From positions 26,709 to 90,708 of IMG/VR virus record IMGVR_UViG_3300042923_000692: a stretch of DNA of 64,000 nucleotides. One strand, 5' to 3'. A program made the position numbers and the translations under genes. Positions 30,362 through 63,980 of this stretch are shown in pieces; the first letter of the stretch is position 1; every line of letters begins with the position of its first letter. Under the pieces are notes generated by a model. That model had not been told where the DNA came from. It saw nothing but the letters and a program-made list of their open reading frames with translations, and made no database searches. Source of the stretch: a virus. Its lineage: Duplodnaviria; Heunggongvirae; Uroviricota; Caudoviricetes.

Positions 30362-30421
30362 GCTATCGCGTGTGAGGCGCGTCACCCATGTGGATGAGCA
30401 TGACCTTACCGTTCTTGCGAA

Positions 30422-30855: not shown

Positions 30856-30887
30856 CGGTTACTCCCATTTTGATTGAATTGACGCAG

Positions 30888-31262: not shown

Positions 31263-31280
31263 CCCCGTGCGCCGGTTCAC

Positions 31281-31496: not shown

Positions 31497-31519
31497 CTTT
31501 TCTTCTCCTTTGTTGGGTA

Positions 31520-32479: not shown

Positions 32480-32491
32480 CTAGTTTTTCTC

Positions 32492-32707: not shown

Positions 32708-33033
32708 TGATCTTCGGGATTACGATAGAAGACCAACGTCTGAGAGATGGTCACCTCGTATCGATCCCTGTCCCGAAGTCCTTCGGCCGAATGGAACTCG
32801 ACGTCACCAAATTCGAGGAGGAAATCCTCCCCGAGAGTGGCGACGGCTCCGGGATTGCTCAGGAAATGATTGGACAGAATCTCACGAGCGATGAGCTGCT
32901 CGTCGAGAATTCGGTCCATGATCTTCTGGTAGTGAGACTTCTCCTCGACCGGCTTCTCGATATCCTCGACGAGAGCTAACGGCGCACCCTGGGACTCATC
33001 CGGAAGGAATCCGTTGTAGTCGGTGTTCATCAC
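32704..33033 (-). CDS. hypothetical protein
   Basis: 109 aa. Confidence 0.5.
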   Translation of the reverse strand: MMNTDYNGFLPDESQGAPLALVEDIEKPVEEKSHYQKIMDRILDEQLIAREILSNHFLSNPGAVATLGEDFLLEFGDVEFHSAEGLRDRDRYEVTISQTLVFYRNPEDQ

Positions 33034-33230
33034 TTGCCCTCACTGACATCTTGGAATGTGCGCATGACCAGTCGGACCGGCTCCGTGCGGAAGGGGTTGT
33101 TGATTCGAGCCGCGATTGCAGCTTGAAGGAAACCTGCGATATTGCGAGCTTCATCCTCAGTAACCTCGAAGGTGACTACGCGCTTCGGCTTTGGTGCGAT
33201 GTTGGCTTCCATTATCCACCCTCGTTCCAA
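33030..33230 (-). CDS. hypothetical protein
   Basis: 66 aa. Confidence 0.45.
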   Translation of the reverse strand: MERGWIMEANIAPKPKRVVTFEVTEDEARNIAGFLQAAIAARINNPFRTEPVRLVMRTFQDVSEGK

Positions 33231-33601
33231 AGTCGGATCTGATCGGCGGAAACACCAATCACTCGGTCATCGAACTTGACACGGTAGTCCCAGCTGGCGA
33301 GATTATTCAACTGGTCCTCGTCGGAGATCTCCATGAGAATTCCGATGCGGTCGTTGTAGAGAAGGGTGTTCTGGATGAGGACTTTATCACCCGACTTCGG
33401 CGCGTCCCCCCAGGGGGTATCGTCATGGTTGAACTCGCTACCACGATAGAAGTAGTAGCTCAAGCCCTCCTTGGCGCCATCCTTACCGACGAGCTCTACT
33501 CGGTCACCCCAGGGTGCCGAAATAACCCCGGTGATGTTGGATCCATCACGAACCCACTGGTTGACCTCGGCGTAGAACCGATCGCGATTCAGATACTTCA
33601 T
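33212..33601 (-). CDS. hypothetical protein
   Basis: 129 aa. Confidence 0.5.
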   Translation of the reverse strand: MKYLNRDRFYAEVNQWVRDGSNITGVISAPWGDRVELVGKDGAKEGLSYYFYRGSEFNHDDTPWGDAPKSGDKVLIQNTLLYNDRIGILMEISDEDQLNNLASWDYRVKFDDRVIGVSADQIRLWNEGG

Positions 33602-33602
33602 G

Positions 33603-34001
33603 TCAGTCTCCTAGAACGTTGAAGAGGATGAGACCCTCGTGATTGATTCGAAGGAAATACTCGCGAACTTCAGTACCCGCGTACCTCGTCTGGGTTTCCT
33701 CGATCCGGATATTCCCGGAGAGAACCGGCCTCTCGAACTTGACCTGCTTCATGCGAGGAGTCCAACCCACGAGCTGGCCGGCCATGGTCTCTCGGATACC
33801 CAGGTGACGAAGGACTTCGTTGAGGAAGACGTATCCTTTTGCCACGAGAAGTTCGTTGAAGTAGTTCTGGGTTCCCTGAAGGAAGAAACGATTGTGATCG
33901 TCGCTCTTGTCGAAATTCGGGTTGGTGAAGTCGAAGATGAATTCGCGCTGCTCCATACGACGACGGAATCCTTCAGTCTGAAGGCGTTCTAGGACGTTCA
34001 T
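33603..34001 (-). CDS. paralog family A, C-terminal domain only (VFLNEVLRHLG...GWT)
   Basis: 132 aa; shares the conserved C-terminal block with 21148..21975 and 34077..34862. Confidence 0.5.
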   Translation of the reverse strand: MNVLERLQTEGFRRRMEQREFIFDFTNPNFDKSDDHNRFFLQGTQNYFNELLVAKGYVFLNEVLRHLGIRETMAGQLVGWTPRMKQVKFERPVLSGNIRIEETQTRYAGTEVREYFLRINHEGLILFNVLGD

Positions 34002-34076
34002 TTCGTGCCTTTCTGGCAGAGTGGAGTCTGGGACCCCTGCCTTCTACAGACAAGGGTCCCAGAGGTCATTTTCTCT

Positions 34077-34862
34077 TCACCACGGATCGTTGGCGAAGGT
34101 GACGCTTGGTGGGGTTCGATATCCGATGGTGAGCACCGGCTTCTCGTCATGCGCTGCGCCGCCGATAACAACCTCGAGCGGCTTCTTGTTGTTCCATCCA
34201 ACAACCTCGCCGGCGTCGGAGTGCGGCAGGCCAAGCTTATCGAGGAAGACGTTCAGAGAGATGAATCCGTCATCAAGACAGACTCGATTGGCGTCGTTCT
34301 CGGCTCGATGGATCTTCTCGGCATTACTAACGAAGACCTGCTGAGTGTGGGTCTCGATGACCATCACGTCACCGTCCTTGGCGATGACCAGACGATCGAG
34401 TTCGTCCCGCTTCTCGTTCACCTTATCCTGGGCGATATCGTCCTGGATACGACGCTCCTTGGGCTTGCTGGTGGTCTCAACCATCTTGGACTGGTACTCG
34501 GAGAGAGCACGTTCGGAAATGGCCGCGGCAGAGATGAGTGCGACGTTTCGGTTGGCGCTAATCCGATGGCTGCCGACGACCGCCACACCCGTGACGACAC
34601 CGACCACAACGACGGGAATATAGAACTTCCACGTTTCCTTGAGGACTTCCTTCGGCGTCATGAAGACAGTCTCTTCGCCATCGGGAGTTTCGTCGATGCG
34701 TGCTGCCGCGTCTGCCATCACGACAAGACCGGACTTGAATCCCGCACGAGATGCGAGATATGTTGTAGCGGCGAGGCCGGCCACGCTGACGGATGTGAGG
34801 ATTTCTGGTGCATACTTCTTAAGCCCGATACCGAGCTTATGCATGTTCTCCTGGAGAGTCAT
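34077..34862 (-). CDS. membrane protein, paralog family A
   Basis: 261 aa; same architecture as 21148..21975. Confidence 0.55.
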   Translation of the reverse strand: MTLQENMHKLGIGLKKYAPEILTSVSVAGLAATTYLASRAGFKSGLVVMADAAARIDETPDGEETVFMTPKEVLKETWKFYIPVVVVGVVTGVAVVGSHRISANRNVALISAAAISERALSEYQSKMVETTSKPKERRIQDDIAQDKVNEKRDELDRLVIAKDGDVMVIETHTQQVFVSNAEKIHRAENDANRVCLDDGFISLNVFLDKLGLPHSDAGEVVGWNNKKPLEVVIGGAAHDEKPVLTIGYRTPPSVTFANDPW

Positions 34863-35161
34863 GACTTATCTGCTTCCTGGTCGTAAATTGGCTGTGCGGT
34901 TCGAGACCGGCGTGTGGGAACTGGCTTCAGTGGCTCGGTCGGAGGGCTGTACCGAACAATCGGATATTTCGTGTCACGAGCATTATCGCGTACGACAAGA
35001 AGAATCCAGATGATCAGCAGGACGAAACCGATGATCGCACTGAGAAGGGCGAAGAGTCCGAAGTCTGCCTCGGCGAGATATTCGAGAGTGCCGACGCCGA
35101 GAACGAAACCTCCAACGCCGAGAATCATGAGGATAAACTGAATAACATTCCTCAGAGTCAT
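34859..35161 (-). CDS. small membrane protein
   Basis: 100 aa, 2 TM. Confidence 0.5.
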   Translation of the reverse strand: MTLRNVIQFILMILGVGGFVLGVGTLEYLAEADFGLFALLSAIIGFVLLIIWILLVVRDNARDTKYPIVRYSPPTEPLKPVPTRRSRTAQPIYDQEADKS

Positions 35162-35163
35162 TT

Positions 35164-35499
35164 CTATTCTCCTTCCAAGAGAGGTTCTCGAGTCATTATC
35201 CTGGGACGACTCAAATCGGACGTTAGCTCAAATCCAAAACGCTCATAGAATCGAATAAGCGCGTTGTTGTCGAGACCTTCGCGAGGATTTCCATAACGCT
35301 GAACTTCCAGCCAAACGGGGATTCGGTTGGCGTCAGCGAAAGCCATAACCTCGATCATGAGCGCAGTCGCGTGACCTTGACCTTGCTGCTGCGATATGAG
35401 ATTGGTAAGCTTTGCCGTGCCATCATCTTCGAAGTGGAGTGTAAGAGACGCCGACTCCAACTTGAATATCGAACTGGTTATACGATCATGTTTGATCAT
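35164..35499 (-). CDS. GNAT-family N-acetyltransferase
   Basis: start MIKHDRI after AAAGGAGG; motif QGQGHATALM...RFYERFGF. Confidence 0.6.
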   Translation of the reverse strand: MIKHDRITSSIFKLESASLTLHFEDDGTAKLTNLISQQQGQGHATALMIEVMAFADANRIPVWLEVQRYGNPREGLDNNALIRFYERFGFELTSDLSRPRIMTREPLLEGE

Positions 35500-35576
35500 G
35501 GGATCCTCCTTTCGGTCAAACAAAAGTGAAAGGCGCAACTGGCGGGTTGCGATGTAGTCCTTTCGGTCTACCCTTT

Positions 35577-35604
35577 CACTATAGGGCTTGCAATTCTTGC
35601 GAGG
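35577..35604 (-). promoter_or_regulatory. conserved promoter-like motif (copy c)
   Basis: CCTCGCAAGAATTGCAAGCCCTATAGTG upstream of the GNAT gene. Confidence 0.4.
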
Positions 35605-35910
35605 TTAAGCCGCTTTCTCAGCGTTTTTCAGTTCTAGATATAGAGCATATCGCTCTTTAGGATTTAGTCCGGCAAACATACCGTGACGGTTATGTGAATC
35701 GCTATCTTCCTCGACCTCCATGATCCAAGCTAGGCAATCTTCTCGAACATCACAGCTACCACATATCTTTCGAGCTTCTGTGTATTGGACGCCGGCATCC
35801 GGGAAGAACGGCTGAAATCCAACTTGAGTACACAGTGCTCCATCTTGCCACGGGAGCTTTTGAGGTGCTGCGATATGGATCTGCACCTCGTAAATTGTTC
35901 CGTTTTTCAT
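35605..35910 (-). CDS. whiB: WhiB-family Fe-S transcription factor
   Basis: 101 aa; four-Cys pattern C-x..-CGSC-x5-C plus basic C-terminus. Confidence 0.75.
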   Translation of the reverse strand: MKNGTIYEVQIHIAAPQKLPWQDGALCTQVGFQPFFPDAGVQYTEARKICGSCDVREDCLAWIMEVEEDSDSHNRHGMFAGLNPKERYALYLELKNAEKAA

Positions 35911-35926
35911 CGTGTCTTTCTTGGGG

Positions 35927-35962
35927 AGGGAGAAAGAAAGAAAGCCTCGATGATGAGGCCTC
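35927..35962 (-). terminator. intrinsic terminator
   Basis: minus strand GAGGCCTC-ATCATC-GAGGC then TTTCTTTCTTTCT. Confidence 0.5.
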
Positions 35963-35970
35963 CTTTCGTA

Positions 35971-36207
35971 CTACTTGGTGAGGGCGTGGTCTACGGCTGT
36001 GATGGCGATGGAGCCAAGGGTGGCTGCTGCGATGGAGGCGACGGAGACGACGATGGCTCCGATGACGAGCTGCTTGCCGAGTCGGCCGGCGGCTGCTTCT
36101 GCAGCTGCGACGTAGTCGACAGTGGGCTCTTCGATCGGGATCTCGTCGGTCTTCTTCGTCTTCTTCGGGAAGAGCGTGACCTTGACTTCAGGCTTAAAAA
36201 TGGCCAT
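35971..36207 (-). CDS. small membrane protein
   Basis: 78 aa; C-terminal TM. Confidence 0.5.
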   Translation of the reverse strand: MAIFKPEVKVTLFPKKTKKTDEIPIEEPTVDYVAAAEAAAGRLGKQLVIGAIVVSVASIAAATLGSIAITAVDHALTK

Positions 36208-36228
36208 GAGAGTTTCCTTTCAGGGGGT

Positions 36229-36258
36229 GTCATTATAGGCCCTGTAATTCTTGCGAGC
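36229..36258 (-). promoter_or_regulatory. conserved promoter-like motif (copy d)
   Basis: GCTCGCAAGAATTACAGGGCCTATAATGACAC + CCCCTGAAAGGAAAC..ATG. Confidence 0.45.
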
Positions 36259-36299
36259 ACGCCAAAAAGAGAAGGCCCGGTTAGGGGCGATCTCCTTTA

Positions 36300-36464
36300 C
36301 TACTTCGAGGTCTGGATGATGTAGAGCTTCTCGATCTTGGTCGTTCCGGGGAGGGGCTTGCACGTGCGGTGCTTCCGAATCTGGTGGGTGATACCAGCGG
36401 CGGTTGCGGCGACGGCGACTCCTGCAGCGGCGACGATCAGTTTGATCTTGGTGTCTTCGTTCAT
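36300..36464 (-). CDS. 54-aa membrane peptide
   Basis: ORF absent from the track; MNEDTKIKLIVAAAGVAVAATAAGI... Confidence 0.45.
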   Translation of the reverse strand: MNEDTKIKLIVAAAGVAVAATAAGITHQIRKHRTCKPLPGTTKIEKLYIIQTSK

Positions 36465-36484
36465 GGTTAGTCCTTTCGAGGGGT

Positions 36485-36514
36485 GTCATTATATGCCCTG
36501 TGAAATCTGCGAGC
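36485..36514 (-). promoter_or_regulatory. conserved promoter-like motif (copy e)
   Basis: GGCTCGCAGATTTCACAGGGCATATAATGACAC + CCCTCGAAAGGAC. Confidence 0.45.
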
Positions 36515-36520
36515 CAAAAA

Positions 36521-36633
36521 CCATAAGAGCTGTATCTTGCCTGGTATCAAGGCGTTTAAGCTACTCCATTGCTGATCCGCTTGCCTGGTAAATCAAGGCG
36601 TTTAAGCTACTCCTTTGCCGCGGACTCTTATGG
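36521..36633 (-). ncRNA. candidate small structured RNA or iteron element with its own promoter and U-run
   Basis: 9-bp closing inverted repeat CCATAAGAG/CTCTTATGG; two tandem 33-34-nt direct repeats (cttgcctggta[a]atcaaggcgtttaagctactcc); T5 immediately downstream on the minus strand; no ORF. Confidence 0.4.
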
Positions 36634-36662
36634 TCATTATAGTGCTTGTGATTCATGCGACG
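36632..36662 (-). promoter_or_regulatory. conserved promoter-like motif (copy f) driving the ORF-less element
   Basis: GTCGCATGAATCACAAGCACTATAATGACC. Confidence 0.45.
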
Positions 36663-36667
36663 ACCTC

Positions 36668-36700
36668 GCGAAAAAAGGAAAGGGCTCCGTAGAGCCCCGT
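36668..36700 (-). terminator. intrinsic terminator
   Basis: GGGGCTC-TACG-GAGCCC + TTTCCTTTTTT. Confidence 0.55.
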
Positions 36701-36703
36701 CCG

Positions 36704-36835
36704 TTAGTCGAACTCGGGATGGTTGAGATTGTCGAAGAGACGCTCAGCATGGCTCCTACCCAGAAGCTCGATGACGACATCGTAGATGTCTTCTTCGGGC
36801 TGGTAGATGGTAGGGGCGGACTGCATTGTCTTCAT
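36704..36835 (-). CDS. 43-aa acidic peptide
   Basis: ORF absent from the track; MKTMQSAPTIYQPEEDIYDVVIELLGRSHAERLFDNLNHPEFD; own promoter and terminator. Confidence 0.4.
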   Translation of the reverse strand: MKTMQSAPTIYQPEEDIYDVVIELLGRSHAERLFDNLNHPEFD

Positions 36836-36855
36836 TTGGTCTCCCTTTCAGAGGT

Positions 36856-36886
36856 GTCATTATAGTGCTTGCAATTTGTGCGAGGG
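36856..36886 (-). promoter_or_regulatory. conserved promoter-like motif (copy g)
   Basis: CCCTCGCACAAATTGCAAGCACTATAATGACACC + TCTGAAAGGGAGACCAAATG. Confidence 0.45.
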
Positions 36887-36888
36887 AG

Positions 36889-36915
36889 CAAAAAAGAAAG
36901 GCTCCGAAGAGCCTC
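36889..36915 (-). terminator. intrinsic terminator
   Basis: GGCTC-TTCG-GAGCC + TTTCTTTTTT. Confidence 0.55.
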
Positions 36916-36919
36916 TCCT

Positions 36920-37093
36920 TTAACGGAATCGATTACGAATCGAATCCTGGGTGGCAAGGTAGATCAGCGCTTCCTTGGAAGTCGCAGCTCCGAGTTCTCG
37001 GACAACGCGGCTGGTGCCGCGGATGTATCCGAATGAGAACGCGATTGCTGCGGTTCCAACGACTGCGATGGCGATCTTGGCCTTTTCGTCCAT
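36920..37093 (-). CDS. 57-aa membrane peptide (start MDEKAKIAIAVVG)
   Basis: TM helix; SD GAAAGGAACCATC; the track's 110-aa version would read through the promoter and terminator. Confidence 0.45.
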   Translation of the reverse strand: MDEKAKIAIAVVGTAAIAFSFGYIRGTSRVVRELGAATSKEALIYLATQDSIRNRFR

Positions 37094-37113
37094 GATGGTT
37101 CCTTTCGATCTGG

Positions 37114-37144
37114 TGTCGTTATAGGACCTGTGATTAGTGCGAAA
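37114..37144 (-). promoter_or_regulatory. conserved promoter-like motif (copy h)
   Basis: GTTTCGCACTAATCACAGGTCCTATAACGACACC + AGATCGAAAGGAACC. Confidence 0.4.
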
Positions 37145-37200
37145 CATTTCATGGAAAACCCCACCCGGGGAAATTTTTGAAAGGGGTTGTGGCTTTCGCG

Positions 37201-37246
37201 CAAAACGGAAGGAGGTCCCGGCAGCGGTTAAGCTACTAGGACCTCC
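37201..37246 (-). terminator. terminator-like hairpin
   Basis: GGAGGTCC...GGACCTCC 8-bp stem then TTCCGTTTTG; loop contains GGTTAAGCTACT, the motif also found in the 36521..36633 repeats. Confidence 0.4.
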
Positions 37247-37289
37247 TCCCATTTTGATTGAATCTGCCGAATAGTGGCCGATGCCGGCT

Positions 37290-37580
37290 TCAGGCCTTGC
37301 GGATGAAGCTGACTGCTTTCGAGGTCAGAGAATGACCGGCCTGCTCATAGGCGATGATCACGAGGATTCCTCCGATGGACGCGATGACGGGGATCCAGTC
37401 CTTCAGGGTTGTACGTTCGCGGACGTTGGGGTCCTTGATCTTGTACAGCTCCTGAAGTGCTGTCACCATCTTCGCGTACTCGGGGGAGTCCGCCGTGACC
37501 GAAGCCATCTGGTCAGTGATGTCTTTGATCTGCTTCTCGATGAGAGTCTGCTTGTCCTGCTTGGTCTTCTTGCTAAGCAT
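37290..37580 (-). CDS. small membrane protein (holin-like?)
   Basis: start MLSKKTKQ after CTCTTGAAAGGAGACCCC; C-terminal TM. Confidence 0.5.
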   Translation of the reverse strand: MLSKKTKQDKQTLIEKQIKDITDQMASVTADSPEYAKMVTALQELYKIKDPNVRERTTLKDWIPVIASIGGILVIIAYEQAGHSLTSKAVSFIRKA

Positions 37581-37603
37581 GGGGTCTCCTTTCAAGAGAT
37601 GGG

Positions 37604-37632
37604 TGTCACTATAGGGCTTGTGATTCTCGCGT
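37604..37632 (-). promoter_or_regulatory. conserved promoter-like motif (copy i)
   Basis: CACGCGAGAATCACAAGCCCTATAGTGACACCC. Confidence 0.45.
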
Positions 37633-37633
37633 G

Positions 37634-38074
37634 TTACTCAGTAACTCGCAGGCGCACAACCTCGGCCTTAACCGCCTCAAGCTCCTGCTGCTTACCAACA
37701 AAGATAGCAAGCAGAGCAGAGAAAGACGAAAGAGCCAGCGACAGTCCGGCCAGAAGAGCGGCGTTAGTTTCCGCATCATACAGGCCGAAGAACACCAGAG
37801 CCGGTGAGACGGTGGCTGCGAGACCGTAGACGGCCGCGCGAATCACAGTCCAACCCGTGCTCCAGTCACCCTTACGCACATTGACCAGAGCCAGAAGTGC
37901 AGCGAGGAACTGAAGAACGGCACCAGCGATGATGAGTGCATTCTCAGTCTGAGCCTGTGTGGCGAAACCACCAAGAATCAGAAGAGGTGCGAGCGAACCG
38001 AGCCACAGCTGAATAAGCTGTCGTCGTTCGGGGTTAAAGAAATCAGCGAACTTCTGCATTGTATTCTCTTTCAT
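37634..38074 (-). CDS. multi-pass membrane protein (holin-like)
   Basis: 146 aa, ~4 TM helices, charged C-terminus; start may be ATG at 38059. Confidence 0.5.
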   Translation of the reverse strand: MKENTMQKFADFFNPERRQLIQLWLGSLAPLLILGGFATQAQTENALIIAGAVLQFLAALLALVNVRKGDWSTGWTVIRAAVYGLAATVSPALVFFGLYDAETNAALLAGLSLALSSFSALLAIFVGKQQELEAVKAEVVRLRVTE

Positions 38075-55199: not shown

Positions 55200-57425
55200 T
55201 CAGTACGCGTAGAACCAGTCGGTGTCGATGCCGTGCGGGAACGAGTAACCCGTAGCCGGACGTGCCTCGACCTCGGTCGACTCGGTGATCGCGGGCAGGG
55301 CGCCAGCGGTCTGCTCGACGTTGTCGATGTAGTACTTCACACCGGTCTGAGCGGGGATGGTGATGACGTGAGTCGCCGGCACGTAGGTCGGCTGCGTCGG
55401 GGTAACCACCGTACCGAGGTTCTTCTTGATGACGAGAGCCGACTTGGGCTTCGTCAGCGCACCCGAGATGCGGGACTCGATGAGGTACTTGTACTGGTTG
55501 TAGTCGATGTCGAAGTCATCGAACATGCCAATACGGCCACCAGCGTCAGCACCAACCGTGTAGTCCTGCAGGTTGACGATGATACCGAGGATCTCAGGAG
55601 TGTCCTCCATGACCTCGACGGTCACGATGCGAGACACGCGAAGCGCGGCCGCAAGCGACTCCTGCGTCTCGTAGAGACGACGGCCAACCTTGTCCTTCTG
55701 CAGGATGAGGTCGGTGAGGATCTCGTCCGTGGTGAAGAGGACGGGGTTGCCCGAGCCCTTGTAGTTACGACGAGCGTAGAGGATGCCCTCGACGATGTCA
55801 TTCGCGGACGACTCAGCCGCCAGCGTGACAATGTGCGAGTACATGTCGTGATCGAACGCGATGGGCCGAATGTGGTCCTCGTCGATCTTGTCCTCGTCGT
55901 CAACCTCGCGGCCGTCACCGATGAGGATCGCACGCGCGATTTCCTCATCGAGCATGAGACGCATCTCAGCCTTGAGCCAGGCAACGACGTCCAGGTCGAC
56001 GATGTCGATGATGTCGTCACGGTCCAGCTTCTGCTTCTTGTAGACCGTGGTGGGCGTGGTCACTCGCTTCAGGAGCTTGATAACCTCGTCCTTCTTCATG
56101 TTGCCCTTGACGTAACCCTTGGCACGCGCCTCTTCGGCGGTGATGTCGGCCACGAGCGTCTTGATGCGCGAGAAGGGCGAGTGACGGGTGCCCTCGAGCA
56201 CCGTCGCGACCCACTCGGTACGACGCTTGAGGAGCTCAGGCGTGTTCTGGAGCGCCTTGGCGTCCGGGAACAGGAGGTCGATATCGATGATACCATACTC
56301 CTGAGCGTGCGCAAGGATGGCCTCCTTGAGCGAGCCGTCACGCTTGGCGTCGGACATGATGGTGTCAAGCTGCGAGTGGCTCAGAGTAGCCTGGCCCGAG
56401 CCGGTCGAAGCGTCGCCGGTGAGGCCGGCCTGCTCGAAGAGGTTGTGTCGCATTGCGTCGAATCCTTCCTGGATCTTAGAGTCGAAGTGAGCAAGGAAGG
56501 ATTCCTTGTCATCCTCGGAAATGCCGGTCTGAGCAAGCTCGCCGGAATCGGTCTCAGCGAGAGCTTCTCCGATAAGATAAGCAACGACCGCCTTCTGCTC
56601 CTCCGTGAAGGAGTCATAGACGTCCTGGACCGTCTTGTCTTCGGCGTGCTCCAGGGTGTTGTCGGTGGGCATGTTGTCTCCTTCAGTAGACGTTTCATAG
56701 GAGTGAGCGAGAGCTTCTCCAATGAGGTGATGAACCACAATCTTCTGAGCACCAGTCAGCGAGTCAAAGACCTGCTGCATGTTGTCGTCGGCGTGCTGAA
56801 GGGATTCGGTAGAGTCGCCCTCAGCGTGCACAAGTGCCGCCTCGAGAAGGTGGTGAACAACGACCTTCTGGTCATCATTCAGGGATCCGAGGACCTCCTG
56901 AACCGATGTGTCGGTGTCGTCTTCGATGATCGATTCGGCGCCATTTTCAGAATGAACAAGCTCAGCAAGAGGCTGCTCGTTGAAGATGTACGCCTCGTGC
57001 TCATCCTCGATGAACGAATCCCCGTGAACGAGGTTAACGTTCTCGATAACGGCGCCAGGATTGGCTCCGGCAAGCACCAGACTGACCTCGCGAATATCGC
57101 CGTGGTAAACCTCTCGACCGCCGTCTACACGACGCTCATTGAGATTGTTGGCGAAGATCGAGAGAGCTTCGATGTCCTTGTGCTGGACCATGAACTTGGC
57201 CTGCTGGCCAGCTTCACTCGCGTTGAAGTATCCATGACAGAATACTCCGAATGCGCGGTCTTCGAGAATGGCATGACCGAGGACGGCGCCCGGGTCATTG
57301 TGCTGATGCTGCCAGACGAGAGGAACCTTCTTCTTGTCCATGTGCGCAAAGGCACCAGACTTGATGGTTCGACCGTCGGAGCACTTCTGGTCGTTGACGC
57401 TAGCCCAGCCGCTAAAGTCGGGCAT
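55200..57425 (-). CDS. prohead serine protease - scaffold-like repeats - HK97-fold major capsid fusion protein
   Basis: start likely second ATG (MPDFSGW) after a GGGAGA SD; HK97 gp4-like protease region (GDIREVSLVLAGANPGA); three QK(I/V)VVHHL(I/L)(G/E)EALAH repeats; C-terminal capsid-like region. Confidence 0.65.
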   Translation of the reverse strand: MPDFSGWASVNDQKCSDGRTIKSGAFAHMDKKKVPLVWQHQHNDPGAVLGHAILEDRAFGVFCHGYFNASEAGQQAKFMVQHKDIEALSIFANNLNERRVDGGREVYHGDIREVSLVLAGANPGAVIENVNLVHGDSFIEDEHEAYIFNEQPLAELVHSENGAESIIEDDTDTSVQEVLGSLNDDQKVVVHHLLEAALVHAEGDSTESLQHADDNMQQVFDSLTGAQKIVVHHLIGEALAHSYETSTEGDNMPTDNTLEHAEDKTVQDVYDSFTEEQKAVVAYLIGEALAETDSGELAQTGISEDDKESFLAHFDSKIQEGFDAMRHNLFEQAGLTGDASTGSGQATLSHSQLDTIMSDAKRDGSLKEAILAHAQEYGIIDIDLLFPDAKALQNTPELLKRRTEWVATVLEGTRHSPFSRIKTLVADITAEEARAKGYVKGNMKKDEVIKLLKRVTTPTTVYKKQKLDRDDIIDIVDLDVVAWLKAEMRLMLDEEIARAILIGDGREVDDEDKIDEDHIRPIAFDHDMYSHIVTLAAESSANDIVEGILYARRNYKGSGNPVLFTTDEILTDLILQKDKVGRRLYETQESLAAALRVSRIVTVEVMEDTPEILGIIVNLQDYTVGADAGGRIGMFDDFDIDYNQYKYLIESRISGALTKPKSALVIKKNLGTVVTPTQPTYVPATHVITIPAQTGVKYYIDNVEQTAGALPAITESTEVEARPATGYSFPHGIDTDWFYAY

Positions 57426-57453
57426 ATGGTCTCCCATTTTGAAGATCTCCTTT

Positions 57454-58713
57454 CTACGGTTCGATCTGCTTCAGTTCGAGCATAGGTTCGACTTCAGCGG
57501 GAGTTATGGGTTGTCCGGTTTGTTCCCGAGTCAGGTTGGAGTTTCGAAGCTCGTCTGCCTTGGGGTCTTCCGATGGCGAGAACCCGATGATGCCACGGAA
57601 CTCATTCGACGAGAGAATCTCGTTACGAGTGAACTTGTCCGCGATCTCAGCGAGCTGACTGATCGGAACCAACTTGAACGGGTCGCGAGCAAAGTCGACA
57701 GCCTGTCCCTGGGTTCGTGCCGTCTTGGTCACGAACGTTCGGTTCAGGGCTTCACAGATTGCTCGAAGAACTGGCTCAATAGTTCGGTTGTAGTAGTTCA
57801 GCATGGTAGCCTCATCCGCAGTACCGTCGAAGACGGACTTAGTGAGACCGAGCTGGTTGTACAACTGTTCGGTGAGGAACTCGACCTGCTTGAGCATGTT
57901 GTTCTCGGCAGGACGGTTAAGCTGAGTAATCTTCTCAGCACCATCGGTGTAAGCGATGCCGTACTTACCTCGAGCAAGCTGATCTTCGATGTCTAGACGT
58001 CGATTGTTGGCCTGCTTACGACGTTCCTCAGTCTTGATGACATAAGGAAGCTGCACGATAAGGTCGAGTTTGCCGGACGCCGAAACTTCGTCCACCTGAT
58101 CCAAAAGCTGGAGCTTTCGAATTAGACGCTGAAGAATCGAGTTTGGCTCATTCATGACCGCATAGAGAGGATTCTCCACAATGGCCACGATTCGCTTCGG
58201 TAGAATGAGTTCGTCGTGACGACCCATCTCCTGATTCCAAATCTTAACTCGAACATGCTTCGGGAACCACCCAACGACTTCGCCGACCCTAAGACTCTTA
58301 ATGTCGTAACCGCCGGTATACTTGGGGTTGATCGTCGTGTCGACCGGAACCACAGCAATAACACCCTTATCAAAGAGTGTCATGGCCATGTCCTGACGGA
58401 AGGCAGTAGCTGCCTGATCCAAGTTCGCTTCAACGGTGAGACACTCGTTCAGGCCAGAATTGACCTGTTCGAGATACCGACCATTTGCGTCGCGACGAAT
58501 GTGGCGAATGAACACCGAAGCGACATCAACCCCAAGACGAGTGTAGATTGCGGAAATGATCGAACCTTCGCCGGAAATGCGAACTCGAGGACGATCTGGA
58601 CGAAGACCGTAACTGGCACCGTATGTATTAGCATACGGCATCGAGTACTCGGTCTGGTTCTCAGTGTCTACGAAAGCATTCCATGCGTGAGAAATACGAT
58701 CACGAATTCCCAC
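57454..58713 (-). CDS. portal protein
   Basis: 419 aa; position between terminase and capsid protease; portal-like size and composition. Confidence 0.65.
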   Translation of the reverse strand: MGIRDRISHAWNAFVDTENQTEYSMPYANTYGASYGLRPDRPRVRISGEGSIISAIYTRLGVDVASVFIRHIRRDANGRYLEQVNSGLNECLTVEANLDQAATAFRQDMAMTLFDKGVIAVVPVDTTINPKYTGGYDIKSLRVGEVVGWFPKHVRVKIWNQEMGRHDELILPKRIVAIVENPLYAVMNEPNSILQRLIRKLQLLDQVDEVSASGKLDLIVQLPYVIKTEERRKQANNRRLDIEDQLARGKYGIAYTDGAEKITQLNRPAENNMLKQVEFLTEQLYNQLGLTKSVFDGTADEATMLNYYNRTIEPVLRAICEALNRTFVTKTARTQGQAVDFARDPFKLVPISQLAEIADKFTRNEILSSNEFRGIIGFSPSEDPKADELRNSNLTREQTGQPITPAEVEPMLELKQIEP

Positions 58714-58745: not shown

Positions 58746-59252
58746 TTACTTCCAGGCGCCAGAAGCCTTATCGAAGGCCAGCGCGACTGTGCTGTAGGAG
58801 GTAAGTCCCTTATTGTCGGCAAAAGCCTTTGCGGCAGCGGCGGCACCACGCTTACCCTGAATAGAAGCGGCGAGATTACCCGCACCCTTATCCAGAACGG
58901 CTAGCGCGATTGGTCCAGCCAGAATTGCAGCGCCAACGGCAAGACCCTTGGCAGTGCTAGATGCGTACTCCTTGGATCGAGCTTTAACAATGGATTCGCC
59001 GTTGGCGATTCGTTTCTCGATCTTACGAGTTCCGCCTCGACCAACATTCTGAAGATCGTTAACGCGCTGCATCTTCGTGTATCCGGCATCTCGAGCAGCT
59101 TCAGAGTTAGCCTGACGCTCAGCTTTCTTTGCCGCAGATTTCTCTTTGCCTCGCTTAACTGCGGATTTAACTCCGTCGGTGGCACGACTAACGCCCCACT
59201 TCATCCCCTTAACGCCATAATGGGCAAGGAAATCATCTACGTTGTCAGACAT
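58746..59252 (-). CDS. DDFLAHYGVKGMKWG-family protein 1 (possible capsid-targeted internal protein)
   Basis: start MSDNVDDFLAHYGVKGMKWGV; basic, Ala-rich. Confidence 0.5.
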   Translation of the reverse strand: MSDNVDDFLAHYGVKGMKWGVSRATDGVKSAVKRGKEKSAAKKAERQANSEAARDAGYTKMQRVNDLQNVGRGGTRKIEKRIANGESIVKARSKEYASSTAKGLAVGAAILAGPIALAVLDKGAGNLAASIQGKRGAAAAAKAFADNKGLTSYSTVALAFDKASGAWK

Positions 59253-59253
59253 G

Positions 59254-59784
59254 TCACCTCCCAAAGTTCTTCAAGAACTGTGCGCCAGATTCAACCAACC
59301 CGGAGTTCTTGATGCTAGAATATGTAGCCTTGCCGGCTTTTGTAACGACGCCTCGAATCGCGGGATTCTTATACGCCGCATAGACTGCGACAGCGGATAG
59401 TGCTACTGGGGCACCGGTACCGAGTGCAAGGTTCTTGACGCCGCGGGCGGTCTTAGCCGTACCCTTAACAACATCCTTACGCTTGCGCTCACCACGAGCC
59501 TGAGAAGCGCGCTTACCGAGGTCCTGACTATTAAGATGCTGATCGAAAGCTTTAGCGTAAGCCGGGTCCTTCTTGGACTTAGCTTCCACCGTGGCCTTAA
59601 TCAACTTCCGTCGAGTACCAGCACCTTCCCCAAAGAACATCTTAGCCTTGGCGAATTCATCGGCATCTTTCCTAGCTTCTCGACTTGTTCTAGCCGAGAC
59701 TCCGGGAATGGCAGCACTACGCTTACCCCAACGCATACCCTTCACGCCATAATGGGCGAGAAAATCGTCTACGTTGTCGGTCAT
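59254..59784 (-). CDS. DDFLAHYGVKGMRWG-family protein 2
   Basis: start MTDNVDDFLAHYGVKGMRWGK. Confidence 0.5.
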   Translation of the reverse strand: MTDNVDDFLAHYGVKGMRWGKRSAAIPGVSARTSREARKDADEFAKAKMFFGEGAGTRRKLIKATVEAKSKKDPAYAKAFDQHLNSQDLGKRASQARGERKRKDVVKGTAKTARGVKNLALGTGAPVALSAVAVYAAYKNPAIRGVVTKAGKATYSSIKNSGLVESGAQFLKNFGR

Positions 59785-59785
59785 T

Positions 59786-60163
59786 TTAAGATCCTTCTCG
59801 AGCCCGAGACGCCTCGTTAACGGCGCGAATCTCATTGATCGTCTTACCGATCGCAACACCCTGAATGATGGTGTTAACTGCGGCGACGCCAATCCTAACC
59901 GACGGGTTGTTACCAGCGAGCGAGGTAATTGCCGATCCTCCGACGTTAGTGACCAAATTGACCATTAGCGACTTACCGACCGACTTAGAAATCGCCTTGC
60001 CGCGGGAACCACCGGAAGTATCCAGTCGCTCCTCACCAGCCTTGCGAAGAGTTTCGCGATTGGCCTTGCGTCGATCAGCCTTGGATTCACCAGCCTGACG
60101 CTTACCCCATCGCATTCCTTTAACACCGTAGTGCGCGAGGAAATCGTCCACTTCAGTGGTCAT
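59786..60163 (-). CDS. DDFLAHYGVKGMRWG-family protein 3
   Basis: MTTEVDDFLAHYGVKGMRWGKR. Confidence 0.5.
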   Translation of the reverse strand: MTTEVDDFLAHYGVKGMRWGKRQAGESKADRRKANRETLRKAGEERLDTSGGSRGKAISKSVGKSLMVNLVTNVGGSAITSLAGNNPSVRIGVAAVNTIIQGVAIGKTINEIRAVNEASRAREGS

Positions 60164-60171
60164 AATTTCTC

Positions 60172-61917
60172 CTATTCGAAAGCATCCTTGTTGAGCTTAT
60201 AGGCAACCCAGGCGTCAAGAAGAGCCGACACATTATCGATCTTTTGATCCTGTCGCTTCTTGAGAAGCTTTCGGTTACCGTTTGTGTCCTCCATGGTGAT
60301 GGCGTTACCCATAGCGAACTGCATAAGAGCTTCATCAAAGATGAGTGCCTTTTCGCCAGAGAGATGCTTTAGCTCACCCAAAGGTACGGATTCGGTGCGA
60401 GCACCCTGAATAACCTTCTCGATACCGAAAGGACCATTCTCAGATTCCCAACGGGTAACGAATTCCTTAGCGTTGTAAGGGTCGTAGCCAAAGCAACGAA
60501 CATCATACTCCTGCGAGAGAATGAACTTGTCCAGGTCGTCATACACATCCATCATGTCAAGAACATTGCCTGGAAGAACCATCAAGGTTCCCTCAGCCAT
60601 GAATTCCTGATACTTGAAGACGAGAGCCGCCTGGAGCTTTCTCATTGTCAGTTCGGAGATATAAGCTCGAGTCTTTACGCCAAAGGATCCATCACGAAGC
60701 GGGAATAGGAAAGTGAACGCACAGAAGTCATCGCCCTGAGAGAGGTCGGCACCCATGGCACACGGCATTCTCTCAAAGTTCTTCGGATTGTGCGGAACCG
60801 TCTCTTCATACGTGAAGAAGTAGGTGTAACCCTCCATCGGAATGCCGAAACGCTTGGCCAAAATGTCATTGCGCGCAGCAGGGACACTTTCCATTCGTTC
60901 GACGTCTTCCTGATACGTCTCGTATGTAACCGTGTAGTTGATGTTGGGCTGGGCCTTGGGCCACATCGCCGGGTTCGAAACCTCGTCGATGGAGTCGAGG
61001 TGATACCACCAGATCGAGACCTGAGGAGCCCAGTAGTCACCCTTAAGGATGTCCTGTAGTTCCATTTTGATGGTATCGCCGGAACCGTTACGAACCGTAC
61101 CCTCCGAGGAGATGGCGACGATCCAATAGCCCTCTTCCTTAGCGGCTCCCTGCTCCAAAGCACCGATAACGTCCTCTCGAACGTCACCAGAGAGCCACTC
61201 ATCCACGGTATTGTACTTAGTACGAAGACCCTGGAGCTTGTCGATGCGCATGGGGCGAATCTCAAGCAGTGAGTTAGTAAGGAAGTTCTCAATACCTTTT
61301 TTGGTACTGACTAGCTTCTGGCGGAGAGCTCGGTTACCAGTGGTGTTCTGGAGCGACCCCTCGGTGAGAAACTTAAAGTAAGGACCACGTGCGCGAGTAA
61401 TAGCAGTGCGCAAAGGCGAAAGTACTTCATCGGCCTGCTTCATTGTGGGCGCAGTAGCGATCTGATGCGTGGTGGCTGTGTCAACGGTCAGACCGTAAGC
61501 ATGCAGCGCTTCGGCATACATGGACTTAGCGCCACCTCGAGCAACAATCAGATACTGCTTCTTCGTAAGTCGTTGCTTAACCATCTTACGAACGTAATGA
61601 CCGCCGTGGTTGTCCGGCGAAGGTTCGTAGACGGTCTTCTCCCTGAAGGTGAACCAAGACAGAAGGTCTTCGGCCCAGAGCTTAAAGGTGTCGAGAAGTT
61701 TGAGAGGCTCACCATCGGTGAGGGTCAGTTCGTTCTCGCAGAAATCGACGAAGCCGTTAATGGCCAGATCGTCGTAATAGTAACGAGAGTCTTTGATGCG
61801 CGCATCGATTCGCAGCATCTGAAGAGAGACCTTTTCATTAACAGGAATCTCTCCGTTGATAACCGCTTGACGGAACATGCCGTAATACAACGGCACAGCC
61901 GTATTCGATAGGGCCAT
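60172..61917 (-). CDS. terminase large subunit
   Basis: 581 aa; ATPase and nuclease arrangement typical of TerL. Confidence 0.8.
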   Translation of the reverse strand: MALSNTAVPLYYGMFRQAVINGEIPVNEKVSLQMLRIDARIKDSRYYYDDLAINGFVDFCENELTLTDGEPLKLLDTFKLWAEDLLSWFTFREKTVYEPSPDNHGGHYVRKMVKQRLTKKQYLIVARGGAKSMYAEALHAYGLTVDTATTHQIATAPTMKQADEVLSPLRTAITRARGPYFKFLTEGSLQNTTGNRALRQKLVSTKKGIENFLTNSLLEIRPMRIDKLQGLRTKYNTVDEWLSGDVREDVIGALEQGAAKEEGYWIVAISSEGTVRNGSGDTIKMELQDILKGDYWAPQVSIWWYHLDSIDEVSNPAMWPKAQPNINYTVTYETYQEDVERMESVPAARNDILAKRFGIPMEGYTYFFTYEETVPHNPKNFERMPCAMGADLSQGDDFCAFTFLFPLRDGSFGVKTRAYISELTMRKLQAALVFKYQEFMAEGTLMVLPGNVLDMMDVYDDLDKFILSQEYDVRCFGYDPYNAKEFVTRWESENGPFGIEKVIQGARTESVPLGELKHLSGEKALIFDEALMQFAMGNAITMEDTNGNRKLLKKRQDQKIDNVSALLDAWVAYKLNKDAFE

Positions 61918-62102
61918 CGCCGACCCTCCTTTCTAGGTGTTACGTGGGGGACCTAAGCCGTCCCGGGAAAAGATCCCCCACGAGTTCACTCGTAACCCAG
62001 GAAAGCAGCGAAACTATCGTCCTCTACCGGCTTAGTGCTGGTGGGGGAGCATCCGTCACACGGACGTACCGTGCAGCTACAGTTTTTAGCCATGATTGGT
62101 TC

Positions 62103-62501
62103 CTACTTCTTGGGCTTCGGAATAACGTAAGATGCAGCTTCGGCAATATCGAACTTGCGCTGAAGAGCTGCCTTGATGCCGTACTTCATACCACCAGCAA
62201 GAGCCACTCCAGCAACCACACCTGTGGAGCTTAGAACGATCTTTTTGACGGCGGTTCGGCCAGGACTGAGGTCTGAATCCAGAAGATCCTTAACCTTTTT
62301 CTCCTGCTGAAGACGATTGACCAGCTTGTCCAGATCCTTATCGCTCAGCGTCTGGCGCCGGCGACGAGCATCCTTTCGCTGAGTGCGAATCTTTTCTTCC
62401 TTTTTGGTTCGCTGTACTCCGGGACTAACCAGTCCCTTTGAAACGCCCCATTTCATACCCTTTACACCATAGTGCGCGAGGAAGTCGTTTACGTCAGTCA
62501 T
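62103..62501 (-). CDS. DFLAHYGVKGMKWG-family protein 4
   Basis: MTDVNDFLAHYGVKGMKWGVSK; C-terminal TM. Confidence 0.5.
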   Translation of the reverse strand: MTDVNDFLAHYGVKGMKWGVSKGLVSPGVQRTKKEEKIRTQRKDARRRRQTLSDKDLDKLVNRLQQEKKVKDLLDSDLSPGRTAVKKIVLSSTGVVAGVALAGGMKYGIKAALQRKFDIAEAASYVIPKPKK

Positions 62502-62510
62502 GTCACCTCC

Positions 62511-62885
62511 TCATCTTAAAGGAATGGGGGATATGGTAATCCCGTCGAAACTTCTGTTAAGTTTGTACGCCATAAAGGCAATACCTGCGGCAACCGAAGC
62601 GCCAGTCAAAAGACCAGAAACGATAGCGTCTTTGTTGTCTTTTACGAGGCTGGTTGTAAAGTTTTTAGCAGCGGTTCTTTTGGGACTGAGATCCTCATCC
62701 AAAAGTTCCTTTAGCGTTTTCTCTTTACGATTTCGATCAACTAGTTCATCAAGAGTTTTGTCTTTCAACAGTTCTCGTCTAGCTCGTTGATCCGCTTCTT
62801 TGGCGGCCAATTTAGAAGCTCTACGAACGCCCCACTTCATACCTTTAATTCCGTAATGCGCAAGGAAGTCGTCGACATCCATCAT
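62511..62885 (-). CDS. DDFLAHYGIKGMKWG-family protein 5
   Basis: MMDVDDFLAHYGIKGMKWGVRR; C-terminal TM. Confidence 0.5.
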   Translation of the reverse strand: MMDVDDFLAHYGIKGMKWGVRRASKLAAKEADQRARRELLKDKTLDELVDRNRKEKTLKELLDEDLSPKRTAAKNFTTSLVKDNKDAIVSGLLTGASVAAGIAFMAYKLNRSFDGITISPIPLR

Positions 62886-63574
62886 GCAACCCCCGCAGCT
62901 TGAGCATGGGCGAGAATTTGAGAGTCAGAGAGTGCCGAGTTGTACCAAGCGACACCGCCAAATCGACCACTCATGCTGCGGTTCGTAGCGTCAGGGCTTC
63001 CGCCGAGAACCATATTCGTTCCCGGGATACCCATGGCGCGAACTCCCGATCGAACTTCTACCCCATTGTCGAACAACTTTGCCGTGGTACCATCCCACGT
63101 GACTGCCCAATGGTGAATTCCAGTTAGATCCGGTGCGGTATAATATGATCCGACAACGTATCCGGACGTAAGTCCTCCGAAGTAGAGAGTTACTCCATCA
63201 CTACCGTGACGTAGCGATATGACGTTTGACCACCGGAATATTTCATCCGCCGATACCCAAACGTTCATCACGGCGAGCATTTCGATAGTTAGGGCGGTGG
63301 GTGTCCCAATAGTGGCTGCCGCGGGTAGAGTAATCCCAGCGCTAGCTGCGCCGTTAATCCCAAGAGCCGTCGATCTATCCCCCACGCCATCGGCACCATA
63401 AGTAATACCAATATGGGAAGACGGTGTGATGTTACCCATCTGATCTACGGCCGGTTCTGCGGTATCATTGCCGGGAAAATAGAAGAAAGGGTTGTCAGCC
63501 AGAATCGCAGTTTCATACGATCCACCGCCCGAAACAGGAATGGATACCGCGGATCCAAAAATTCCCGATCTCAT
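62882..63574 (-). CDS. LamG/concanavalin-like jelly-roll domain protein
   Basis: 230 aa; motif MSGRFGGVAWYNSALSDSQI. Confidence 0.5.
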   Translation of the reverse strand: MRSGIFGSAVSIPVSGGGSYETAILADNPFFYFPGNDTAEPAVDQMGNITPSSHIGITYGADGVGDRSTALGINGAASAGITLPAAATIGTPTALTIEMLAVMNVWVSADEIFRWSNVISLRHGSDGVTLYFGGLTSGYVVGSYYTAPDLTGIHHWAVTWDGTTAKLFDNGVEVRSGVRAMGIPGTNMVLGGSPDATNRSMSGRFGGVAWYNSALSDSQILAHAQAAGVA

Positions 63575-63575: not shown

Positions 63576-63980
63576 TCAAACCACTTCTTCGACGACGATT
63601 GGGTATAGCGAGGGAAGAGGTGTCAACTCACCATTCTCGACCGCAATGCTAATGCGCCATTCCATCTCAGACGCCTGCTTTTCAAGAGCGGCAATAACGA
63701 ACGAGGTTGTCGCGTTGATGTCGAACAGAAGTCGAACCTTGACGAACATGTAAGACTTAATGAGATTGAGATGCATAGAGTTGGGACCAAGATAGGTCGA
63801 CCAAAGCACCGAGCTGTCCTCAATCATGAATCCCTCAGCGGGACCAGCACCGATCTGCTGAAGAGTGGAGAACACGGAGTTGATATGCATGAGCACGTCG
63901 ACGTCAAACGCATCGTAGTCAGCGCTGATGCCAAGGACCTTCTTGGTTGTGTCCAGAATACTGTCCGGAATAGCAGGCAT
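63576..63980 (-). CDS. hypothetical protein
   Basis: 134 aa. Confidence 0.45.
   Translation of the reverse strand: MPAIPDSILDTTKKVLGISADYDAFDVDVLMHINSVFSTLQQIGAGPAEGFMIEDSSVLWSTYLGPNSMHLNLIKSYMFVKVRLLFDINATTSFVIAALEKQASEMEWRISIAVENGELTPLPSLYPIVVEEVV

Follow-up and report, generated by a model that had tools for sequence, protein, structure and literature searches.

The stretch of 64,000 nt analysed here (IMG/VR virus record IMGVR_UViG_3300042923_000692, positions 26,709 to 90,708; hereafter the window) derives from a virus of the Caudoviricetes, a phage of actinobacteria, and encodes five small basic proteins, named P1 to P5, which begin with a nearly identical block of about 20 residues, the Pfam family DUF7211, and whose genes are situated on both sides of the gene for the large terminase subunit (TerL). 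DUF7211 is a constant component of one type of head module, namely that of Lactococcus phage 1706 and related siphophages of Gram-positive hosts. As judged from the sequences, it can be assumed with moderate confidence that P1-P5 are loaded into the capsid and probably ejected from it, and that the shared block would serve as a docking motif that is retained in the mature proteins.

The five DUF7211 proteins

All five genes are located on the minus strand and start with ATG, each behind a purine-rich, Shine-Dalgarno-like stretch. P5 (62511-62885; 124 aa; motif at nt 62829-62876) continues after the motif with a basic linker, a conserved helix element (LKDKTLDELVDRNRKEKTLKELL), and a Gly/Ala-rich hydrophobic tail, and P4 (62103-62501; 132 aa; motif at nt 62445-62492) with an Arg/Lys-rich linker, the helix element (LSDKDLDKLVNRLQQEKKVKDLL), a hydrophobic segment, and the C-terminal residues IPKPKK. 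In P3 (59786-60163; 125 aa; motif at nt 60104-60151), the motif is followed by a basic, Gly/Ser-rich body, in P2 (59254-59784; 176 aa; motif at nt 59725-59772) by a helical bundle, and in P1 (58746-59252; 168 aa; motif at nt 59193-59240) by an Ala/Lys-rich body with a hydrophobic segment. P2 matches phrog_6291 (E 2e-58), which it covers from end to end.

The shared start of the five proteins, ..V(D/N)DFLAHYG(V/I)KGM(K/R)WG, contains 14 invariant columns in the alignment (M1, V5, D7, F8, L9, A10, H11, Y12, G13, K15, G16, M17, W19, and G20). All five proteins match Pfam PF23847 (DUF7211), a hidden Markov model of 25 positions with a gathering score of 27 bits, at E-values of 4e-13 to 2e-15 (48.8-56.4 bits), such that the almost invariant N-terminus which an earlier note on this sequence had described for these five genes is confirmed. 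A six-frame profile search of the window recovered exactly P1-P5 (E 2e-17 to 2e-19), the next best match having an E-value of 0.3. Since the codons of the invariant motif residues differ among the five genes in their third-position bases, the amino acids being the same, purifying selection acts on the peptide, and recent gene conversion as the origin of the motif identity is ruled out.

Outside the motif, P1-P5 align poorly. The earlier note had regarded them as five paralogues; the motif is indeed common to all, but clear paralogy beyond it is limited to P4 and P5 (43% identity, shared helix element), and P1, P2, and P3 represent different module families with different PHROGs. The PHROGs of the family include 6291, 7502, 7021, 14126, and 35934. 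The helix element of the P4/P5 type reads L-S-x-x-E-L-x5-R-L-x-x-E-x-x-Y-x-x-L; a profile search found it within the window in P4 and P5 only (P5: E 8.6e-08), and 85 of the 88 matches to it fall in open reading frames (ORFs) with DUF7211. All five proteins are basic (isoelectric point 9.65-10.5) and exhibit near the C-terminus one Gly/Ala-rich hydrophobic stretch, whose best 19-residue Kyte-Doolittle mean (1.4-1.95) is borderline for a transmembrane helix. They are single modules without enzymatic domains in Pfam and NCBIfam: the NCBIfam search gave no match at all, no Phage_Mu_F domain was found in Pfam at E<=0.1, and no family of the small terminase subunit (TerS) was matched in Pfam, PHROGs, or NCBIfam.

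Association with the head module

The minus-strand gene order in the window is connector, LamG-like protein, P5, P4, TerL, P3, P2, P1, portal, and protease-capsid fusion, with P5 and P4 thus lying upstream and P3, P2, and P1 downstream of TerL. The head-tail connector (Phage_connect_2; 63576-63980, minus strand) forms the conserved upstream boundary of the module. TerL (60172-61917, minus strand) is recognized by Pfam TerL_nuclease (1.3e-32) and phrog_9 (2.4e-101), and the portal protein (57454-58713, minus strand), directly downstream of P1, by Pfam Phage_portal (7e-16). The last gene (55200-57437, minus strand; 745 aa) combines, according to Pfam and PHROGs, Peptidase_S78, a linker, and Phage_capsid, in agreement with the earlier note, which had taken the protease to be fused to the capsid protein.

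With Phage_connect_2 upstream of TerL and the fused protease-capsid gene after the portal, the window fits the 1706-like head module, and the same order is found in the phages Count, Rima, 1706, ReqiPepy6, Bilo, Qui, and OhMyWard. Among sequenced phages, Microbacterium phage Count is closest, its nucleotide sequence being 77% identical over 71% of the region; it possesses five motif genes (gp10, gp12, gp14, gp15, and gp16) arranged as in the window. Streptomyces phages of the Rima group have four motif genes, and the Rhodococcus phage ReqiPepy6, whose GenBank notes link the whole module to phage 1706, has eight motif ORFs of 129-531 aa (gp013 and gp015-gp021, identified by a regular expression).

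The association was examined in both directions. Starting from the motif, which was scanned for in one genome per species, the flanks were profiled with proteins of the window, Count, Rima, 1706, and ReqiPepy6. The scan yielded 72 loci in genomes and metagenome-assembled genomes, mainly of Bacillota (Lachnospiraceae, Oscillospiraceae, Ruminococcus, Blautia, Hungatella) and Actinomycetota (Actinomyces, Atopobium, Collinsella, Eggerthellaceae), and nearly every locus with enough flanking sequence showed the order connector, one or more DUF7211 genes, TerL, one or more DUF7211 genes, portal, and protease-capsid fusion. Starting from the protease-capsid fusion alone, 80 IMG/VR loci were selected, 37 of them with a complete module, and all of these 37 contained a DUF7211 ORF, 35 being detected by the regular expression and two being divergent. 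The divergent copies (H-V-G-I-R-G-M-R-W-G and a truncated M-P-G-V-K-G-M-R-W-G) are both situated directly upstream of TerL.

Taken together, 82 of 82 complete modules encode DUF7211, which bears out the earlier assignment of P1-P5 to a head-morphogenesis module. The copy number ranges from one to nine (median three) in the 78 modules with a capsid fusion of typical length. A DUF7211 ORF precedes TerL in 76 of the 82 modules. A helix-type member, i.e., one of the P4/P5 type, is detectable in 69 of them, and 62 of 69 helix-type ORFs are situated before TerL; modules with only one DUF7211 protein mostly have one of the helix type. In a few modules, the connector adjoins TerL and the sole DUF7211 gene follows after TerL or after the portal gene (loci L039 and L064).

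Family size and multi-module architecture

Searching 1.84 billion representative proteins with a profile built from the five N-termini revealed the motif in at least 11,253 protein clusters (clustering at 50% identity; E<=1e-3). The 150 best-scoring matches are mostly long proteins (400-1500 aa, and up to 1538 aa), and 147 of them contain several motif copies as counted by the regular expression (two copies in 64, three in 65, and four in 18), most of these copies being internal and spaced at a median of about 205 residues; HMMER matched up to five stretches per protein among the best-scoring relatives. With two to five internal copies per polypeptide, the motif is not intrinsically an N-terminal tag, as which it had been introduced in the earlier note. 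In ten multi-copy relatives that were read individually, a motif is followed by a basic linker, a variable module, an acidic stretch, and the next motif. The residues V-R-K directly after the motif core are conserved as part of the motif.

The short proteins of the window correspond to single modules of these polyproteins. P2 is homologous to module 2 of the four-module protein P0128, and P4 and P5 match the terminal module type (LSxxEL..R..E..Y element plus hydrophobic tail), helix-type modules forming the C-terminus of polyproteins of up to 1500 aa. That the polyproteins might be artefacts of gene calling was considered and is ruled out by uninterrupted ORFs, both in ORF7 of phage 1706 and in P0162, which is encoded by one ORF (L006, 606-4679) flanked by a truncated gene on its upstream side and by the portal gene.

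Concerning additional domains, the 55 longest relatives were searched for Pfam families at E<=0.001. An N-terminal 2H phosphoesterase with both HxT motifs conserved is present in 23 of the 55, a GNAT domain in two, and LysM and CW_7 in one each; Phage_Mu_F is absent from the families matched in this set. The 2H-headed polyproteins (P0162, P0240, and 21 others) are encoded directly upstream of the portal gene, and their domain composition makes it conceivable that they are enzymes which the virion delivers and whose substrates are nucleotides of the cyclic or 2'-5'-linked kind.

Among sequenced phages, a tblastn search with the first 47 residues of P1 found 376 places in 138 phage records, with up to eight places per genome; by host, the records include 64 of Arthrobacter, 53 of Gordonia, ten of Streptomyces, and four each of Rhodococcus and Curtobacterium. 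Some motif genes in relatives are annotated as 'acetyltransferase' or 'membrane protein'. In two public records the start of a motif gene is probably mis-called: the annotated start of CapnMurica gp06 (Arthrobacter phage, L004) is the Met of G-M-K-W-G and cuts the motif, and in Rima gp07 (Streptomyces phage, L002) the motif lies before the annotated start.

Structural annotation of homologues and predicted structure

Two homologues are annotated as structural proteins, and their presence in virions is taken here from these database annotations. ORF7 of phage 1706 (462 aa), the sole DUF7211 protein of this phage, is encoded directly upstream of TerL, possesses the helix element, and contains two motif copies (L-Q-H-R-G-V-I-G-M-R-W-G and L-L-H-K-G-V-K-G-M-K-W-G) in a reading frame without stops; its database record labels it 'structural protein'. 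ReqiPepy6 gp019 (331 aa, with an N-terminal motif) is labelled in GenBank 'virion structural protein, similar to 1706 gp07', a label which PHROG 35934 inherits.

AlphaFold2 models were made with family alignments as input for P4 (predicted local distance difference test, pLDDT, 66) and P2 (pLDDT 64); they are largely helical and of moderate confidence. The model of P4 shows a long helix at residues 33-77 (pLDDT 85-91), with the motif at about 58, and contains no helix-turn-helix (HTH); that of P2 shows a helical bundle at residues 31-121 (pLDDT about 70-87). In the two models, the motif reaches a pLDDT of 46-58, as against 70-91 in the adjoining helices, which fits a linear motif that would become ordered only on a partner.

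A candidate protease site before the motif and in the capsid fusion

A short pattern, hydrophobic-x-[H/Q]-[S/T/A], recurs in two places, namely ahead of internal motif copies and in the linker of the protease-capsid fusion. It precedes 196 of 310 internal motif copies (63%), compared with a background of 9.7 +/- 1.8% at positions drawn at random from these proteins, and its H/Q is situated 9-14 residues before the invariant His of the motif, most often 10-11. A strict form of this upstream site, H-[S/A]-[D/E], was discarded, as it covers only 22% of the internal copies. Of 174 stand-alone or N-terminal copies, 104 have the initiator Met 10 residues before this His, and 142 carry T, S, or A as residue 2. 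The place of H/Q is thus taken by the start Met; were this Met removed, as commonly happens if S, T, or A comes second, the N-terminus would be the same as that left by a cut after H/Q.

In 48 distinct protease-capsid fusions, for which [D/E] at +2 was additionally required, the linkers contain 77 sites, compared with 10.1 +/- 3.1 in shuffled sequences (about 8-fold), and the capsid domains are depleted, with one site compared with 4.8 expected. The linker of the window (56307-56960, minus strand; aa 160-377) contains nine sites: LVHSEN, LVHAEG, LQHADD, LAHSYE, LEHAED, LAQTGI, FEQAGL, LSHSQL, and LAHAQE. H354 (L-S-H|S-Q-L) is invariant in four divergent fusions, i.e., those of the window, Count, Rima, and 1706. 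We infer from this distribution that hydrophobic-x-[H/Q]-[S/T/A] may be the cleavage specificity of the fused S78 protease. A hydrophobic residue at P3 and Ser at P1' are also typical of the sites of HK97 gp5 maturation and of herpesvirus assemblin.

Part of the linker (aa 160-265, about 56650-56960, minus strand) consists of three tandem units of about 45 aa (..QEVLGSLNDDQKVVVHHLLEAALVHAEGD.. / ..QQVFDSLTGAQKIVVHHLIGEALAHSYE.. / ..QDVYDSFTEEQKAVVAYLIGEALAE..), each of which ends with a candidate cleavage site; Count has three such units, and Rima and 1706 have one. The stretch 'ESFLAHFD' of the capsid precursor was considered as a half-motif and dropped, since its conservation does not extend beyond the window and Count to Rima or 1706.

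P1-P5 themselves contain no candidate site, neither after the motif nor elsewhere. Because the site lies about ten residues before the motif and none follows it in P1-P5, the motif would be exposed and retained, and not cut off. The proposal of the earlier note that the shared N-terminus is a tag removed by the prohead protease is therefore at odds with the position of the sites. A connection with the prohead protease as such stays plausible in view of the shared candidate site; that site, however, is upstream of the motif and is not found in P1-P5.

Proposed role and alternative explanations

According to the explanation that we favour, the block of about 20 residues, [S/T]-D-x-V-D-D-F-L-A-H-Y-G-V-K-G-M-K-W-G-V-R-K, does not fold by itself and is most likely a linear docking motif, through which basic, helical modules with no other relationship to one another would be taken up during procapsid assembly, probably at the portal vertex or close to it; the portal protein is a candidate for the docking partner of P1-P5, and the protease domain, TerL, and the connector are further candidates. 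In relatives, the motif accompanies enzyme cargo (2H phosphoesterase, GNAT). The virion would contain the DUF7211 proteins, which would probably exit together with the DNA at infection. In the polyprotein relatives, the prohead protease probably cuts at hydrophobic-x-[H/Q]|[S/T/A]-[D/E] about ten residues before each motif, leaving an N-terminus equal to that of the Met-less stand-alone proteins, such that the motif would be kept. Docking, its partner, cleavage, and ejection are what we infer from sequence comparison.

A wider version of this explanation is possible but tentative, namely that DUF7211 is a general cargo-loading tag of a large lineage comprising phages and prophages of Gram-positive bacteria, among them many of gut Lachnospiraceae and Oscillospiraceae, with tagged modules being docked on the procapsid and delivered with the DNA. 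The dock would then be a conserved site of the procapsid, on either the portal or the protease, and the prohead protease would cut polyproteins and free each tagged module. Cargo with 2H phosphodiesterase activity could destroy cyclic-nucleotide defence signals on entry, and P1-P5 would represent non-enzymatic members, i.e., ejection proteins acting at the DNA end or forming a membrane channel.

Several observations weigh against the favoured explanation. Known capsid-targeting peptides are far less conserved than the motif, which could have another role, e.g., binding of TerL. The P4/P5 type occupies the classical TerS slot in most modules of a lineage in which no TerS is annotated, and 'membrane protein' labels on relatives are a reminder that the hydrophobic tails could be anchors in the host membrane. 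The candidate site is missing before 37% of the internal motif copies. Longer protease-capsid fusions do not go along with more motif copies (rho 0.09, p 0.45), for which reason docking on the linker repeats is unsupported. Moreover, no hint of a partner came from structure databases: the PDB contains no chain with the motif and none matching a polyprotein, and Foldseek searches with the models of P4 and P2 gave no significant match in the PDB or BFVD.

The main rival explanation, which we regard as unlikely, holds that the P4/P5 type is a TerS-like protein that binds phage DNA via its basic linker and oligomerizes via its long helix, with DUF7211 as a peptide binding TerL or the portal and the other motif proteins as accessory factors. 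It would account for the position of most helix-type ORFs before TerL and for the fact that no TerS is detectable in the window with Pfam or PHROGs and none is annotated in relatives, whose records mention 'terminase' only; with a size of about 125-190 aa, a linker rich in basic residues, and a long helix, the proteins match the general shape of TerS, and an HNH endonuclease is encoded nearby in relatives, as in HNH-dependent cos phages. However, 1706 ORF7, situated upstream of TerL and equipped with the helix element, is labelled a structural protein, neither an HTH nor a TerS family match (Pfam, PHROGs, NCBIfam) was found, and the hydrophobic tail is atypical of TerS. The motif also heads modules fused to 2H or GNAT domains, helix-type modules end very long polyproteins, and in L039 and L064 the connector is next to TerL and the only DUF7211 gene follows TerL or the portal gene. 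Somewhat less probable still is a removable leader as in phage T4, where an N-terminal block takes the protein to the scaffold or core before the prohead protease cuts the block off. The N-terminal position of the motif in all five window proteins, a protease that resides in the procapsid through its fusion to the capsid protein, and the labelling of homologues as virion proteins would all suit such a leader, but the best-scoring relatives have the motif internally and several times, the V-R-K immediately following it is conserved as part of it, no candidate site follows it in P1-P5, and the enriched site is upstream, at the position of the start Met.

Both remaining explanations are less likely than a TerS-like role. 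P1-P5 might be tail-anchored proteins of the host membrane that are not packaged and serve assembly at the membrane, the timing of lysis, or the exclusion of superinfecting phages, DUF7211 being a cytoplasmic interaction peptide. This is improbable: the Gly/Ala-rich segments near the C-terminus, the label 'membrane protein' in the Arthrobacter phages Qui and Truckee, the endolysin and holin genes just upstream of the connector in relatives, and the rare fusions to LysM or CW_7 can be read in this way, but the hydrophobicity is borderline, many family members and modules lack hydrophobic segments, homologues bear structural-protein labels, and in all modules the genes are strictly embedded among those for connector, TerL, portal, and capsid. 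Least probable, and indeed very improbable, are assembly chaperones or scaffold-like proteins that are degraded or expelled and hence absent from mature virions. Helical, basic proteins of low predicted order, encoded in the head module and possibly linked to the protease, would be suited to this task; yet the capsid fusion already has a scaffold-like repeated linker of its own, homologues in 1706 and ReqiPepy6 are labelled structural, enzyme cargo fusions would make little sense, and P1-P5 are without candidate protease sites.

Comparison with known systems

The favoured explanation thus keeps one part of what the earlier note had proposed, i.e., that P1-P5 are internal or ejection proteins loaded into the capsid, which the module, the structural labels, and the cargo fusions make plausible, and departs from it in not assuming a T4-style N-terminal targeting leader. 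Like the DUF7211 proteins, the internal proteins (IP) IPI-III and Alt of T4 carry a short common peptide on otherwise unrelated proteins, some of them enzymes, and have a link to the protease. The T4 internal proteins end up in the head and are injected, whereas this is a prediction for the DUF7211 proteins. In T4, the leader is always N-terminal, shows little conservation, and is cleaved off at L/I-x-E; DUF7211, in contrast, is near invariant, often internal and repeated, and has its candidate cleavage site upstream, and there is no sequence relationship between the two. The strictly N-terminal leader that is characteristic of capsid targeting of the T4 type is not found across the DUF7211 family, and P1-P5 have no candidate site at the C-terminal end of such a leader.

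SPP1 gp7 and other MuF proteins are minor head proteins encoded next to the portal gene and fused to variable effectors, among them 2H phosphoesterases; some undergo processing prior to packaging or in the course of it. Their carrier is a folded domain of about 110 aa, whereas DUF7211 is a linear motif of about 20 residues that is repeated between modules. Fusions of 2H phosphoesterases to MuF or portal domains have been predicted to be packaged and injected effectors (Iyer et al. 2017, PMC5512222). The fusions of 2H and GNAT domains to DUF7211 parallel both T4 Alt and the MuF fusions and thus count in favour of a role as capsid cargo. Polyvalent proteins are defined by at least two effector or enzymatic domains on a single polypeptide whose gene lies among the late or packaging genes of a phage; P1-P5 do not have these, and some relatives with 2H or GNAT and several modules partly fit this definition. 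DUF7211 proteins belong to none of the three families, i.e., T4 IP, MuF, or polyvalent proteins.

Cargo-loading peptides of encapsulins are likewise short and conserved and load diverse cargo into a shell of the HK97 fold, but they are C-terminal and bind the shell protein, whereas the DUF7211 motif is N-terminal or internal. Small terminase subunits resemble the P4/P5 type in the slot upstream of TerL, in size, in the basic region, and in the long helix. Differences are that the P4/P5 type has no match to a TerS family and no HTH, bears a hydrophobic tail, shares its motif with up to nine modules per genome, and has a homologue annotated as a virion protein.

Compared with 1706 and ReqiPepy6, the window has the head module (connector, TerL, portal, and protease-capsid fusion) and the motif in common, but the proteins are distributed differently: 1706 encodes one two-copy protein of 462 aa, ReqiPepy6 has eight genes, and the window five short single-module genes. 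Already known are the motif itself, which is catalogued as Pfam DUF7211 and in several PHROGs with no function recorded in these entries, and the structural annotation of two homologues. In the literature searched, no description was found of its presence in every head module of this kind, of the architecture of the polyproteins, of the fusions to cargo, or of the candidate site that motif proteins and capsid fusion share. This literature contained no mention of 'DUF7211' or 'HYGVKGMKWG', and a survey of Arthrobacter phages includes no proteomics and no remark on the motif.

Further features of the locus

Between the connector and P5, the window contains a gene for a LamG-like protein (Laminin_G_3/ConA-like lectin; 62882-63574, minus strand; 230 aa; Pfam E 3.8e-12), which overlaps the start of P5 by 4 nt. 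The position is unusual, as lectin-fold genes usually belong to tail or decoration proteins. The protein has one hydrophobic-x-H-A site close to its C-terminus (LAHAQA).

The end of P4 is separated from TerL by a gap of 185 nt, the matching gap in Count being only 14 nt long. Within it lies an ORF of 35 aa (MAKNCSCTVRPCDGCSPTSTKPVEDDSFAAFLGYE; 61986-62093, minus strand) with AGGAA 8 nt before its start; it contains four Cys (CxC...CxxC), and its C-terminal DDSFAAFLGY faintly resembles the DUF7211 block in its first half. At 61995-61978, likewise between P4 and TerL, lies a terminator-like hairpin.

At the junction of portal and capsid fusion (57438-57453), there is no gene in the window. An ORF of about 165-215 aa occupies this slot in Count (gp18, 213 aa), Rima (gp13), ReqiPepy6 (gp023), and many metagenomic relatives, and in a few loci (L042, L064) the slot is filled by a DUF7211 protein. 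Positions 20000-38000 of the window have a G+C content of 0.54-0.575, compared with about 0.48-0.53 elsewhere, and the GC skew changes its sign, which suggests a block of opposite gene orientation or of different origin.

Significance

Since relatives can be cultured (Microbacterium phage Count, Streptomyces phage Rima, and Lactococcus phage 1706), the question of what DUF7211 does is directly testable. If it is a capsid-loading signal, it would show how a very common head-module lineage of phages of Gram-positive bacteria, with the motif in at least 11,000 protein clusters and extending from lytic actinophages to many prophages of gut Firmicutes, loads accessory and effector proteins. In addition, injected anti-defence enzymes (for instance the fusions with 2H phosphoesterase or GNAT) could be spotted by a sequence rule, a cleavage specificity could be predicted for the fused S78 protease, a tag of about 20 residues would be on offer for loading foreign proteins into such phages, and the matter of the missing small terminase of the lineage would be affected as well.

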